From NCBI GenBank assembly GCA_944388545.1, contig CALXJE010000003.1, positions 9,436 to 73,435 on the forward strand: a stretch of DNA of 64,000 nt, in the 5' to 3' direction. Shown here one piece after another: positions 11,017-61,109 of the stretch. A model generated the notes under the pieces. That model did no database searches. It worked only from the letters and a program-made list of their open reading frames with translations, and was not told the DNA's origin. A program made the translations under genes and the position numbers. Origin of the DNA: an uncultured Clostridia bacterium. GTDB lineage: Bacteria > Bacillota > Clostridia > TANB77 > CAG-465. Each line of letters begins with the position of its first letter. Position 1 is the first letter of the stretch.

Positions 11017-12174
11017 ATGTTAAAAAAAAGAGTAATAGTGATAGTATTTCTATTATTTTCTTTGGTTTTTTCTGATTTTTCATATGCAGTAATAGAGAAA
11101 GTAGAAGATGAAAATATCTTTCAAAACACACCTGCTGTTATAGTGAAAAATAATGGTGTGGAAAATGTTGAAGATGAGCTGGACGAAATGTCTTCAGGAA
11201 GAGTTCAAAATCTTGTTGTAGAGGTATTATCAGGAGATAAAAAAGGAAAACAATATAACGCAACATATACTGTTATGGCAAGAGAAGGTAGTAATTTTGA
11301 ATTTGACATTTTAAAAGAAGGAGATAAAGTATATTTAACCATTGATGAAAGAATGGAAGAGCCATTAGTATATGTATCAGGAATACAAAGACATAATTCA
11401 TTGTTAATATTAGCAATAATATTTTTACTTGCAATATTAGTTATTGGTAGAAAGCAAGGAATTAAGACTATAATATCATTAATTATTACTATAATTATTG
11501 TATTTTTTTGGGCACTACCTAGCATAATCAATGGAGCAAGTCCACTTTGGGTAGCAATAGGAGTAAGTTCGGTTATTACTATACTTACATACATAATAAT
11601 TAGTGGATTTCATAAAAAAACAATTGCAGCTATATTAGGTACAGTAGGAGGCTTACTATTATCAGCCCTTATAGTATTAATATTTGGAAAAGCAGCTAGA
11701 CTATCTGGACTTAATGAAGAATCAATGTATTTAGCTTTTTTACCACAAGGTACACAATTTGATTTGGTAGAAATAATATTTGCTGGTATAATAATAGGAG
11801 CTTTGGGAGCATGTATGGATATGGCGATGTCAATAGCTTCTGCATTAGAAGAGATAAAAAAAGAAAATCCATCAGCAAATAGAAGAACTCTATTTAAAGC
11901 TGGAATGAATATAGGGAAAGATGTAATGGGAACAAATACAAATACTTTAATACTTGCTTATGTTGGAAGCTCTCTTACAATATTAATATTATATATGGCT
12001 TATGGAATGAGCTTTTCAGAGATAGCTGATATTGAAATAATATCAGAAGCAATAATACGTTCTTTAGCTGGAAGTATAGGTCTTATAGGAGTAATACCAC
12101 TTACAGCATTTGTTAGTAGTTTACTTTATACGAGAGATAATTATGAAGAAATAGAAGAAGAGGATGAAGCGTAA
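11017..12174 (+). CDS. YibE/F-family membrane protein
   Basis: N-terminal signal/anchor, a soluble ~100-aa domain, then about 7 TM segments. The overall layout and length match YibE/F-like proteins. I prefer the ATG at 11017 after GGAGGAG over the TTG at 11002. Confidence 0.55.
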   Translation: MLKKRVIVIVFLLFSLVFSDFSYAVIEKVEDENIFQNTPAVIVKNNGVENVEDELDEMSSGRVQNLVVEVLSGDKKGKQYNATYTVMAREGSNFEFDILKEGDKVYLTIDERMEEPLVYVSGIQRHNSLLILAIIFLLAILVIGRKQGIKTIISLIITIIIVFFWALPSIINGASPLWVAIGVSSVITILTYIIISGFHKKTIAAILGTVGGLLLSALIVLIFGKAARLSGLNEESMYLAFLPQGTQFDLVEIIFAGIIIGALGACMDMAMSIASALEEIKKENPSANRRTLFKAGMNIGKDVMGTNTNTLILAYVGSSLTILILYMAYGMSFSEIADIEIISEAIIRSLAGSIGLIGVIPLTAFVSSLLYTRDNYEEIEEEDEA

Positions 12175-19562: not shown

Positions 19563-19621
19563 TAATATTTATATAGACTTTTTATTAAATTTATGCTAAT
19601 ATGTATTAGCATAAAATATAT

Positions 19622-30787: not shown

Positions 30788-30859
30788 AATTGAACGCTTG
30801 ACATAGTAAAAAATATAGAGTACTATTAAATAGTAAAAATAAGAAAAGAGGGAAAATAA

Positions 30860-30952
<93 letters not shown>

Positions 30953-30984: not shown

Positions 30985-31067
30985 AATATAAATAGAGAAG
31001 TTAGTTATACTAAATAAAAAGTATAGCTAGCTTTTTTGCATTTAAGAAGATATAAACATGATAAAAA
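30985..31067 (+). repeat. intergenic hairpin repeat, copy C
   Basis: ATAAATAGAGAAGTTAGTTATAC-loop-GTATAGCTAGCTTTTTT...ATTTAA...TATAAACATGATAAAAA. It shares the 5' flank with copy A and the 3' flank with copy D. Confidence 0.7.
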
Positions 31068-31106: not shown

Positions 31107-32360
31107 ATGAAAATGGAAAAGAAAAAAGGACAAAGACAAGGAATATCATTAATAGTACTTGTAATAACAATAATAATAATGATAATCTTAGCAGGAGCAA
31201 TAATCTTAGCATTAAATAATAGCGGAGCCATCGGAAGAGCAACAGAGGCAACAGATAAGAGTGATAAAGCAACACTAAAAGAAGCAGCAAATGTAGCATA
31301 CGGAGAATGGACATTAGCAAGGCAGATGGACGGGGAGACAAAAAGTGCAGATGAATATGTAAAAGAAAAGTTAAAAGCACAAGGATTTAGTGATGAAGAT
31401 TTACAATTAGTATATGTAGATGATTCAGGTAAAATGTCAACAGCAACAGTGCCAGAAGGATTTGTAGCATCAGACATAGAAGGAGAAAACACAATAGCAG
31501 GAGGCTTAGTAATATATGAAGGAACGGAGAAAGTTTCAACAGATGTAGATGCCAAAACAACAAGGAATCAATTTGTATGGGTGCCAGTAGATATATCTGA
31601 GTTTACAAGGACAGCATGGTCAAATAATGTCCCAACATCTGGTTTATCATCAATTTTTACAGAGCCATATTCATATAGCACTGATATAGGAATATCAGAA
31701 GCAAATGATTTAACAGGAGAATATGCAGAGTATAAAGCAATGAGAGCAAGTGTAGAAAAATATGGAGGCTTTTATATAGGAAGATATGAAGCAGGAAGTG
31801 AAACAGAAAGAACAAATGTGGCAAATGGAACAACAAACATGGTAGTAAAACAAGATGCATATGTATATAACTATGTAGGATGGGGACCAAGCATGACATC
31901 AGTAGAAGGAGATGTAACAGATCAAGATAGTAAAAATCAAGGAAAAGGAGCAGTAGAACTATCAAGGAATTTATATAAAGATAATATGTCAGTAAAATCG
32001 ACATTAATATATGGAGTGCAGTGGGATGCAACATTAAGATTTATAGCAGATAGTGAGCATAATGTAAGTGATAGTTCGTCATGGGGAAATTATAGTAATA
32101 ATACAGATAGAACAAGTGTAAGTCCAAATAATCCGGCAAAAACAGGAGCACATGAAAATTGGAAAGCAAAGAATATATATGACTTAGCAGGAAATGTGTG
32201 GGAATGGACAATGGAGGCCGATAGTTCTAGTATCCGTGTTTGTCGCGGTGGTGGCTTCTCGGGCCGCGGTTCTTCCTACCCGGCATCTTTTCGTGGCGAC
32301 GGTAGGCCATCTAGTTGCGGCAGTGACGGCGGCTTCCGTCTAGCACTTTATGTAGTATAG
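31107..32360 (+). CDS. pilin-like N-terminal helix + FGE-sulfatase/C-type-lectin-fold domain protein (putative DGR target), copy 1
   Basis: The N-terminus MKMEKKKGQRQG-ISLIVLVITIIIMIILAGAIILALNN is nearly identical to that of the pilin gene at 45098. The C-terminal half carries FGE/SUMF1-type motifs (GFYIGRYE, NIYDLAGNVWEWT, RGGGF, GFRLA). It has a GAGAGGA RBS and an 85-90% identical paralog at 59850..61109. Confidence 0.8.
   Translation: MKMEKKKGQRQGISLIVLVITIIIMIILAGAIILALNNSGAIGRATEATDKSDKATLKEAANVAYGEWTLARQMDGETKSADEYVKEKLKAQGFSDEDLQLVYVDDSGKMSTATVPEGFVASDIEGENTIAGGLVIYEGTEKVSTDVDAKTTRNQFVWVPVDISEFTRTAWSNNVPTSGLSSIFTEPYSYSTDIGISEANDLTGEYAEYKAMRASVEKYGGFYIGRYEAGSETERTNVANGTTNMVVKQDAYVYNYVGWGPSMTSVEGDVTDQDSKNQGKGAVELSRNLYKDNMSVKSTLIYGVQWDATLRFIADSEHNVSDSSSWGNYSNNTDRTSVSPNNPAKTGAHENWKAKNIYDLAGNVWEWTMEADSSSIRVCRGGGFSGRGSSYPASFRGDGRPSSCGSDGGFRLALYVV
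32229..32330 (+). other. putative DGR variable region (VR1)
   Basis: GC-rich, A-poor block. It differs from the paralog at 27 of 102 nt, against about 5 of 130 nt in the preceding sequence. See findings. Confidence 0.6.
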
Positions 32361-32412: not shown

Positions 32413-32976
32413 TTATTTTATAAGATAATACAGTAAATCAATATATTCGTTAGGGGTAAGTAAAGTTTCCTTACTATCTGTACAACCTATTGAATGTTTT
32501 AATTTATAGCCTTCTTTTTTTACTTTTTTTATAGCATAACAAAATATAGGAGAGTGATTGTATAAAGAAATATAAGCATTTTTTAAAAGAGTTATATAAC
32601 TATTGCTATGTCTATCTATTTCTTTTCCTTGCCAAAAAACTTTTTGTGTAATGCGCCAATCATCAAATAATGTTCGTATACTATAACAAAATGGACCTGT
32701 TTTTGAACAAACATCTTTTTGCACAAACGAATCGTTTACTTTTAGAGATTGTATAAATGATTCCATGGAAGAACAATATACATTATCAAAAGTAAATGGA
32801 TAAGGGCATAGGTTTGAAAGAGCTTTAGAGATACCTTTGCTTTTAAAACTAATATCAATGGTATTTTCCTCATTTAAAGTATAATTACATGATAAATTAT
32901 TACATTCATATAATGTTGATGTTCCTTTTGTCAGTTCTTTGCCACATTTTGGACAGTGCAAAATTAAATTACTCAT
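32413..32976 (-). CDS. zinc-ribbon protein with weak NADAR/YbiA-like C-terminal region (tentative)
   Basis: N-terminal CPKCGKEL...CNNLSCNY zinc ribbon. The segment LSNLCPYPFTFDNVYCSSMESFIQSLKV resembles the FSNF-P-F-x-G-x-Y-S-EH-FQ-K core of NADAR/DUF1768 proteins. AGGAGG RBS. Confidence 0.35.
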   Translation of the reverse strand: MSNLILHCPKCGKELTKGTSTLYECNNLSCNYTLNEENTIDISFKSKGISKALSNLCPYPFTFDNVYCSSMESFIQSLKVNDSFVQKDVCSKTGPFCYSIRTLFDDWRITQKVFWQGKEIDRHSNSYITLLKNAYISLYNHSPIFCYAIKKVKKEGYKLKHSIGCTDSKETLLTPNEYIDLLYYLIK

Positions 32977-59849: not shown

Positions 59850-61109
59850 ATGAAAATGGAAACAAAGAACAGCCAGAGGGAAGGAATATCTTTAATAGTG
59901 CTGGTAATAACAATAATAATAATGATAATACTAGCAGGAGCAATAATATTAACATTAAATAATAGTGGAATAATCGGAAGAGCAGAGGAAGCACGAGATA
60001 AAAGTGACACATCAACACTAAAAGAGGCAGCAAATATAGCATACTCAGAATGGACATTAGCAAGACAGATGGACGGGGAGACAAAAAGTGCAGATGCATA
60101 TGTTAAAGATAAGTTAAAAGATCAAGGTTTTAGTGACGAAGATTTACAACTAGTATATATAGAAGATACAGGTAAGATATTGATAGCAACAGTGCCAGAA
60201 GGATTTGTAGCATCAGATATAGAAGGAGAAAATACAGTAGCAGAAGGACTAGTAATATATGAAGGATCCGAGAAAGTATCAACAGATACAGATGCAAAGA
60301 CAACAAGAAATCAATTTGTATGGGTGCCAGTAGATATATCAGAGTTTGAGAGAACAGCCTGGTCAAATAATGCACCAGCATCTGGTTTATCATCAATTTT
60401 TACAGAGCCATATTCATATAGCACTGATATAGGTATATCAGAAGTAAATGATTTAACAGGAGAATATGCAGAGTATAAAGCGATGAAAGCAAGTGTAGAA
60501 AAATATGGAGGCTTTTATATAGGAAGATATGAAGCAGGAAGTGAGACAGAAAGAACTAATGTAGCTAATGGGACGACAAACATGGTAGCAAAAAAAGATG
60601 CATATGTATATAATTATGTAGGATGGGGACAAGATATGTCAACTACAGAAGGTGATGTGTATGATTGGGATTATAATTTAAATCAAGGAAAAGGAGCAGT
60701 AGAACTATCAAGAAATTTATATAAAGATAGTGATTCAGTAAAATCAACATTAATATATAGTGTGCAGTGGGATGCAGTATTAAGGTTTATAGCAGATAGT
60801 GAGCATAATGTAACAGATAGTACATCATGGGGAAATTATTATAATAATCCAGATAGAACAAGTGTAAGTCCAAATATTCCAGCGAAAACAGGAGCACATG
60901 AAAATTGGAAAGCAAAGAATATATATGATTTAGCAGGAAATGTGTGGGAATGGACAATGGAGGCCGATAGTTCTATTTTCCGTGTTGGTCGCGGTGGTAG
61001 CTACTCGCGCTACGGTTCTAACTACCCAGCCTCTTATCGTACCTACGTTAGTCCGTCTTGGTGCGTCAGTAGCGCCGGCTTCCGTCTAGCACTTTATGTT
61101 ATTGTTTAA
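59850..61109 (+). CDS. pilin-like N-terminal helix + FGE-sulfatase/C-type-lectin-fold domain protein (putative DGR target), copy 2
   Basis: MKMETKNSQREG-ISLIVLVITIIIMIILAGAIILTLNN. It has the same domain motifs as 31107..32360 (NIYDLAGNVWEWT, RGGSY, GFRLA). Homology to copy 1 begins ~35 nt upstream of the ATG and ends at ...gcactttatgt. Confidence 0.8.
   Translation: MKMETKNSQREGISLIVLVITIIIMIILAGAIILTLNNSGIIGRAEEARDKSDTSTLKEAANIAYSEWTLARQMDGETKSADAYVKDKLKDQGFSDEDLQLVYIEDTGKILIATVPEGFVASDIEGENTVAEGLVIYEGSEKVSTDTDAKTTRNQFVWVPVDISEFERTAWSNNAPASGLSSIFTEPYSYSTDIGISEVNDLTGEYAEYKAMKASVEKYGGFYIGRYEAGSETERTNVANGTTNMVAKKDAYVYNYVGWGQDMSTTEGDVYDWDYNLNQGKGAVELSRNLYKDSDSVKSTLIYSVQWDAVLRFIADSEHNVTDSTSWGNYYNNPDRTSVSPNIPAKTGAHENWKAKNIYDLAGNVWEWTMEADSSIFRVGRGGSYSRYGSNYPASYRTYVSPSWCVSSAGFRLALYVIV
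60975..61076 (+). other. putative DGR variable region (VR2)
   Basis: Counterpart of 32229..32330, with the same A-free scaffold codons but different residues at the variable codons. Confidence 0.6.

Follow-up and report, generated by a model that had tools for sequence, protein, structure and literature searches.

Probable diversity-generating retroelement variable regions at the 3' ends of two paralogous lectin-fold genes of an uncultured Clostridia bacterium

Introduction

Why should a gene in a genome of very low G+C content end in a short segment that is GC-rich and nearly free of adenine? The question is raised by a stretch of DNA from an uncultured Clostridia bacterium (contig CALXJE010000003.1), here called the window, which is 64 kb long with 27.5% G+C and 41% A and carries two paralogous genes with such tails. 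A preliminary description of the window took the tail of the first gene for the variable region (VR) of a diversity-generating retroelement (DGR), the product of a template repeat (TR) copied by a dedicated reverse transcriptase (RT). The founding DGR is that of Bordetella phage BPP-1 (Mtd/Brt), in which the C-terminal surface of a C-type-lectin fold is rewritten in an adenine-directed manner on an A-free scaffold. Our follow-up supports the DGR reading through homologous cassettes, TRs collinear with the tails, variation matched to template adenines, and a fold like that of Treponema denticola TvpA. We put the probability that a DGR wrote the last 132 nucleotides (nt) of both paralogs at roughly 0.9. 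Labels beginning with L denote loci of relatives, and those beginning with P denote homologous proteins. The genes, each an open reading frame (ORF), and their tails are as follows.

31107..32360, + strand: putative target gene, copy 1, ORF of 417 aa
59850..61109, + strand: putative target gene, copy 2, ORF of 419 aa (P0003), paralog of copy 1
32217..32348, + strand: VR1, 44 codons (GCC...CTT), 60% G+C and 11% A, delimited by gapless collinearity with the 132-nt TRs of homologous cassettes
60963..61094, + strand: VR2, 44 codons, 55% G+C and 14% A, delimited by the same alignment

The public gene call for copy 1 (P0001) begins two codons later, at 31113. Both ORFs are intact. The two proteins share 83% identity, and DNA identity between the gene bodies is 88.5%.

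Results

Composition and variation of the tails

The segment 32229..32340 was found to contain exactly 10 A in 112 nt with 62.5% G+C, close to the earlier estimates of about 10 A and about 60% G+C; the body of gene 1 is 43.6% A. Only 15 of the 63,889 segments of 112 nt in the window have 10 or fewer A, and every one of them starts at 32224-32238, inside the copy 1 tail. The tail of the paralog is the only other stretch with at least 50% G+C, besides one borderline segment at 19621. Codons in the tail are A-free (GGT/GGC, CGT/CGC, TCT/TCG); elsewhere the gene uses GGA, AGA and TCA.

The two tails were compared without gaps at an offset of 28,746. The 130 nt before the tail differ at 5 positions, as the preliminary description had estimated, and within the 102 nt at 32229..32330 we count 25 differences instead of the 27 given there. 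Its account of the kind of difference holds: 17 of the 25 are transversions, 20 lie at codon positions 1-2, and one copy carries A at 14, or about half. The synonymous tail differences that it had tied to A do fall at such codons (CCA/GCA/CCA-type), and these three are the only ones. The VR does not begin at 32229, as first proposed, but 12 nt earlier; homology with the TRs gives it an extent of 132 nt, from the GCC of '...TMEA' to '...GCA CTT'.

Template repeats in homologous cassettes

A metagenome scan with the family alignment identified 80 loci, 30-42% identical and mostly from the human gut. When each locus was compared with itself, 21 loci had a 134-136-nt imperfect repeat of the 3' end of the gene about 2 kb downstream, and 83-96% of the mismatches in these loci have A on the downstream (TR) copy. 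The order of the cassette is target with VR, MutS_I-like ORF, bAvd (PF22296, E 2e-18), RT (336 aa, PF00078, E 1.5e-20, with a YMDD motif), and the TR straight after the RT, all on one strand. An RT was present in 32 related loci. In the L016-type lineage, 18 TRs are identical and 43 different VRs occur in 44 loci on near-identical flanks, with 363 of 392 TR-to-VR mismatches at TR adenines. Judged by its sequence, the L016-type cassette is a canonical, active DGR of the architecture with a MutS-like (MSL) gene plus avd, described as 'Architecture D' by Wu et al. 2018 (PMC5758913). Because homologs adjoin a MutS-like gene, bAvd, RT and a TR with adenine-specific TR-to-VR mismatches, the protein family of the window is a bona fide DGR target family.

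The window tails and two TR types (L016 and L008) are of equal length, 44 codons, and align codon for codon without gaps. We compared four copies that share the scaffold, namely VR1, VR2, L001 and L082, and obtained 39 variable and 93 invariant columns. Adenines of the L016-type TR fall on 32 of the 39 variable columns compared to 18 of the 93 invariant ones (odds ratio 19, p 1.5e-11). Likewise, adenines of the L008-type TR fall on 33 of the 39 and 18 of the 93 (odds ratio 23, p 2e-12). The variable columns are mostly at codon positions 1-2 (32/39), and the invariant columns hold 5 A in 93, against 44% A in the gene body. At codons that never end in A, synonymous variation was seen at 0 of 21, compared to 18 of 75 in the 300 nt upstream (p 0.01). 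Such a pattern, in which synonymous sites stay frozen next to non-synonymous ones that are hypervariable, points to a shared template and not to selection at the protein level. The template that the preliminary description rebuilt by placing A at every differing position is an over-call, since two of the L082 differences (TAC to TAT and TCG to TTG) are plain C-to-T transitions; with more copies, stop codons arise in it.

A codon just outside the VR was also considered. The TGG at 32198-32200 (Trp in GNVWEWTMEA), six codons before VR1, encodes a residue that varies in the family (W, R, V, Y, H, L, D, S) through multi-base codon changes. The idea that it belongs to the VR was rejected, since the TR homology does not extend to it and in L016-type loci it takes nearly always one of two lineage alleles (TAT, AGG; a single CAT in L055). 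These alleles are linked to synonymous changes, and the codon is therefore not a DGR product. The residue may be a selected contact residue.

Other members of the family were seen beside or apart from cassettes. A second paralog lies just downstream of the TR in L016 (13875-15086), and an equivalent ORF is present in L035, L036, L046, L047, L053, L059 and L075. Its tail has 44% G+C and 33% A in all eight loci and no match to the TR, and this paralog seems to be a copy that is not diversified, next to one that is. Nine loci of distant family members (L004, L007, L011, L012, L018, L026, L057, L064 and L073) have GC-rich tails (52-58% G+C) and no RT despite 3-10 kb of downstream sequence. Non-adjacent or orphan copies bearing a VR seem common across the whole family.

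Domain, fold and N-terminus

The copy 1 protein matched Pfam FGE-sulfatase (PF03781) at residues 321-413 with 27.5 bits, above the gathering cut-off of 23.3; copy 2 scored 20.4 bits, below it. The match spans only the C-terminal 40% of the profile; for the domain as a whole, a structure model and Foldseek support the fold. Over the tail, the family profile matched human pFGE/SUMF2 (1Y4J, E 1e-4) and T. denticola TvpA (2Y3C, E 0.03). An earlier model from 19 close sequences was unusable (predicted local distance difference test, pLDDT, 49), whereas the AlphaFold model from 91 sequences reached pLDDT 91. The top PDB match of this model in Foldseek was TvpA (2Y3C, E 2e-5), followed by the FGE family. 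The TvpA structure is reportedly that of Le Coq and Ghosh from 2011. The proposal of an FGE/C-type-lectin fold with the VR at its C-terminus is thus upheld by Pfam, by the profile matches over the tail and by the top structural match.

At the N-terminus, KGISLIVLVITIIIMIILAGAIIL, a hydrophobic anchor leads into helices that form a helical stalk; the proteins are membrane-anchored and probably displayed on the cell surface. The preliminary description also called them pilin-like. A weak profile match to geopilin domain 1 at residues 2-66 (E 0.08-0.18) and a long modelled N-terminal helix speak for this part of the claim; however, a Pfam scan of the target proteins (E <= 0.01) gave no pilin or N_methyl family, and the prepilin motif check found KGISLIVLVITIII without Glu at +5.

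Search for a template, reverse transcriptase and Avd

A third copy of the tail was sought in the window by blastn under lenient settings (word size 7, E up to 10). Both VRs and the previously predicted TR matched the two tails only, and a degenerate pattern with 3 mismatches allowed hit 2 sites only. For the RT, tblastn with RT and Avd and an unfiltered RT profile on 187 six-frame ORFs gave nothing below E 0.3. These results agree with the earlier statement that the 64 kb hold neither a third copy nor an RT. The sequence for seeking an A-rich third (TR-like) copy is GCCGATAGTTCTAATAACCGTGTTAATCGCGGTGGTAACTACTCGAACAACGGTTCTAACTACCCAGCATCTTATCGTAACAACAATAGTCCATCTAATTGCAACAGTAACAACGGCTTCCGTCTAGCACTT. 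A profile search for related RTs matched only close relatives of the query, none of them on a contig known to carry a close homolog of the window genes. No phage relatives of the protein family or of the predicted TR were found.

Since the window contains no TR and no RT, its two genes count as non-adjacent targets, either with a cassette elsewhere in the genome serving them in trans or as remnants of a cassette since lost. These are exactly the two options, remote targets and fossils, that had been named at the outset.

Close relatives and scattered copies

A database search returned 7,249 homologs, of which the best match was the window's own protein, encoded on an NCBI contig of 80,396 bp. 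In homologs of 74-83% identity about 370 residues are conserved, and the tails are hypervariable on a fixed scaffold, RVxRGGxYxxxGSxYPASxRxxxSPxxCxSxxGFRLALYVV. A single ENA sample, ERZ24773294, contributes four such homologs, which have about 7.5x coverage each and occupy four chromosomal places. L001 lies between mutS and mutL, L082 adjoins fur and has an additional copy at the contig end, L083 lies after gyrB and before infC, and L084 adjoins a topA/czcD group. The four places and the contig-end copy indicate that the lineage carries at least five or six scattered copies.

The VRs of these copies are not all alike. VR1, VR2 and L001 show no drift of the scaffold and have 52-60% G+C. At the 101 columns invariant among these three, the L083 VR differs from VR1 at 14 and the L084 VR at 42, and the latter is down to 40% G+C. 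In L083, a MutS_I-like accessory gene (11419-11883) directly follows the target, truncated to 154 aa, and is itself followed by infC. This gene led to L085, from another sample, as a possibly intact cassette. There, a 98%-identical MutS-like gene (25-666) is full length at 193 aa and is followed by a 20-residue Avd remnant; the locus proved to be decayed, and neither L083 nor L085 has an RT or TR.

Among the homologous proteins, P0006 (437 aa, on a 30,734-bp NCBI contig) has a frameshifted VR and reads past the normal stop. Its extension is conserved downstream sequence (…ELGLIFTRLDK…) that also follows the stop codons of L001 and L083, and P0006 is probably a pseudogene. P0007 and P0012 differ by 14% overall but are 100% identical over the C-terminal 130 or so residues, including the VR. 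P0014 and P0015 are likewise 100% identical from about residue 207 to the C-terminus, VR included. The overall difference of 10-14% within these pairs is clustered in the N-terminal two-thirds, which means mosaic paralogs or recombination, with VRs unchanged in those backgrounds.

Constant block, hairpins and neighboring genes

Two features lie at or after the end of VR1.

32331..32353, + strand: 3' constant block GGCTTCCGTCTAGCACTTTATGT, 23 nt, identical in VR1, VR2, L001 and L082
32369..32403, + strand: stem-loop of 13 bp and T-run after the gene 1 stop, fold -22.8 kcal/mol, z -4.9

The identity of the block in both window copies was as first described. It is like an initiation of mutagenic homing (IMH) element by position only, as it sits where TR/VR homology ends in related cassettes. 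The hairpin, with its 13-bp stem and U-run, also exists as reported, but its proposed role as a conserved DGR cruciform element was rejected; the two genes are followed by hairpins of unrelated sequence, and no hairpin was found after L001 and L016. Each post-gene hairpin consists of a stem and a T-run and is therefore an ordinary terminator.

Copy 1 has pflB/pflA upstream and, downstream, a gene on the opposite strand like T4 gp30.3 and then dnaE. Copy 2 is preceded by ftsY and followed by engB and serS. The opposite-strand gene (32413-32976, - strand, 187 aa) matches Pfam Phage_30_3, the T4 gp30.3 family, with E 7.5e-27, and stands alone between copy 1 and dnaE in an otherwise housekeeping context.

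A repeat-containing leader upstream of gene 1

Three features precede gene 1.

30798..30826, + strand: promoter-like site TTGACA-17-TACTAT, a consensus match only
30860..30952, + strand: leader ORF with ribosome-binding site, MLTKERKRVVGV(HT)n..., containing (AC)17 at 30895-30928
30993..31038, + strand: stem-loop (19 bp) and T-run, read as an attenuator terminator, just before the gene 1 ribosome-binding site

With n = 17 the leader ORF ends early, at the stop codon 30950-30952. The third frame after the repeat runs 89 nt past the tract to a TAA at 31015-31017, inside the hairpin loop. Across all five layouts, two of the frames meet a stop 6-24 nt past the tract, and the third stays open for 79-89 nt and ends in the loop of the hairpin. 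The same layout was found in L002, L016, L035 type, L070 and L001; the leader peptides of the first four are not conserved. The repeat number in L016-type loci was 8, 10, 12 or 18. The flanks shown are identical for loci with n = 8-12, and L016 (n = 18) has several flank differences. The long frame is in register in L016 (n = 18), L035 (n = 8) and L070 (n = 9), and the short frame in the window (n = 17), L002 (n = 15), L029 (n = 12) and L041 (n = 10). In L001 only (AC)3 is left of the tract, with the ORF locked into the long frame, and a gene call there covers this equivalent ORF, of 42 aa. An (AC)n leader of this kind is absent from copy 2, and Rfam gave a single sub-threshold chance match, on the terminator.

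On this analysis the gene 1 leader looks like a phase-variable, translation-coupled attenuator. In Streptococcus gallolyticus pil1, experiments have demonstrated that a repeat-driven change in leader-peptide length gates a terminator (PMC3894217). As in that system, a short-repeat tract in the leader ORF would set the frame, and the long peptide would take the ribosome to the terminator. In contrast to pil1, the repeat here is the dinucleotide (AC)n instead of GCAGA, the mechanism is predicted from sequence, and the leader stands ahead of a DGR target gene and, in related loci, possibly of a whole DGR cassette.

Discussion

How would these tails have been made? A TR made up of the same 44 codons, in which AAC/AAT-type codons are set in a scaffold free of adenine, would be transcribed and copied by the DGR reverse transcriptase, which would misincorporate opposite template adenines, and the cDNA would replace the VR. 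The outcome would be a ligand-binding face of the FGE-type C-type-lectin domain rewritten at about 20 codons, with the A-free scaffold (CGT GTT. CGC GGT GGT ... GGC TTC CGT CTA GCA CTT) preserved. That a TR of their own lineage wrote these two VRs, and when it did so, we infer beyond the data presented here.

Several observations weigh against this account. The adenine specificity is carried over from the TRs of other cassettes, and the targets of those share only 30-35% identity with the window proteins. The TR and RT of the window's own lineage were seen nowhere, including the 64 kb of the window. Scans with the scaffold as a DNA pattern gave no match in collections of genome contigs (scanned twice), metagenome contigs (once) and viral contigs (twice); the first pattern used on the genome collection was too strict, as it fixed a G that is variable in L001. 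Four paralogs of a close relative have no RT, Avd or TR at a distance of up to 10 kb, and such cassette-like loci as the lineage yielded are all decayed. Finally, the paralogs differ at 25 of 132 nt (19%) in the tail compared to 34 of 300 nt (11%) upstream, a density about 1.7 times as high and a modest excess (p 0.047). Because that excess is modest, it is the composition and the placement of the differences that carry the signal.

We consider the chance that the VRs are still being rewritten to be about even. The strongest alternative, which falls a little short of an even chance, is that they are orphans: a DGR wrote them in the past, the RT and TR have since been lost, and the frozen tails now evolve as ordinary sequence. 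The cassettes seen in the lineage are degenerate, with the truncated MutS-like gene of L083 and the Avd remnant of L085, and the VRs of L083 and L084 have changed at scaffold columns. The frameshifted VR of P0006 and the VR shared by P0007 and P0012 despite their overall divergence also fit loss of activity, and such genes persist in T. denticola strains that lack RT or TR (PMC4891356). However, VR1, VR2 and L001 lack synonymous drift at third positions other than A and keep their high G+C content in a 27.5% G+C genome, and both ORFs in the window are intact. In addition, the search for RT and TR covered 64 kb, and 16 kb of the source contig and the other parts of the genome lie outside it.

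An explanation without any DGR is already disfavoured, and we regard it as highly improbable. It would hold that a loop rich in Gly, Arg, Ser, Cys and Tyr is under diversifying selection and that its G+C content comes from amino-acid content or gene conversion. The paralogs are indeed mosaics that swap C-terminal segments, the substitution density in the tail is raised only modestly, and the lineage has yielded no TR or RT. Amino-acid content, however, leaves three things unexplained: the A-free choice among synonymous codons, the match of the variable columns to TR adenines of homologous cassettes (p about 1e-11), and the missing synonymous variation at non-A third positions. That a TR or RT lies in the window and was overlooked can be dismissed for practical purposes, given that the lenient blastn returned the two tails only and that the RT and Avd searches gave nothing below E 0.3.

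With a DGR origin preferred, the window tails are a new example of a known system. T. denticola has seven FGE-type targets dispersed along its chromosome, with one cassette serving them, and in some strains targets persist although RT and TR are gone (PMC4891356). The window genes resemble the TvpA family in having the VR at the C-terminus of an FGE-type C-type-lectin domain and in having several paralogous targets scattered on the chromosome (across loci in the window's lineage) away from the RT and TR. TvpA is also the best structural match to the window protein, aligned over the tail, at a sequence identity of about 17%. In contrast, TvpA-family proteins are spirochaete lipoproteins, whereas the window proteins have a hydrophobic N-terminal anchor that looks uncleaved and a helical stalk, in a Firmicute-like host of 27.5% G+C. 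The T. denticola cassette carries an HRDC accessory gene, and the cassettes related to the window genes carry MutS-like and Avd accessory genes instead.

Non-adjacent targets and MSL accessory genes have both been catalogued before (PMC5758913). The related cassettes, with the order target-MSL-avd-RT-TR, are like Architecture D of that survey, and one relative keeps an MSL gene beside its target. The window itself, however, has no MSL, avd, RT or TR, and its lineage has only decayed versions. The tails share with BPP-1 the adenine-directed rewriting of a C-terminal lectin fold on an A-free scaffold. The BPP-1 system resides on a phage and has one target, which is adjacent, and its IMH and hairpin elements are defined, whereas the window genes are chromosomal among housekeeping genes, without phage relatives in our searches and without a conserved hairpin after the VR.

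These findings indicate that sequence composition by itself can reveal DGR VRs, even far from their retroelement; contig-based surveys state openly that VRs of this class escape them (PMC8144416). They add a multi-copy, chromosomally scattered family of FGE-lectin targets in a poorly sampled lineage of low G+C content. The copies span VRs from fresh-looking to decayed and include a degenerate cassette, a range that is useful for studying the spread and death of DGR targets. The (AC)n switch, carried by the same genes, suggests two independent stochastic mechanisms, one varying lectin expression and the other lectin sequence. We are doubtful of the fullest form of such a two-layer contingency, in which six or more scattered membrane-anchored lectins of an uncultured AT-rich Firmicute would all have their sequence rewritten in trans by one DGR using a single template, and individual copies would also be switched by the (AC)n leader-gated terminator. 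In related gut bacteria the same switch lies upstream of the target-MSL-avd-RT-TR cassette, and hypermutation itself may therefore be phase-variable.

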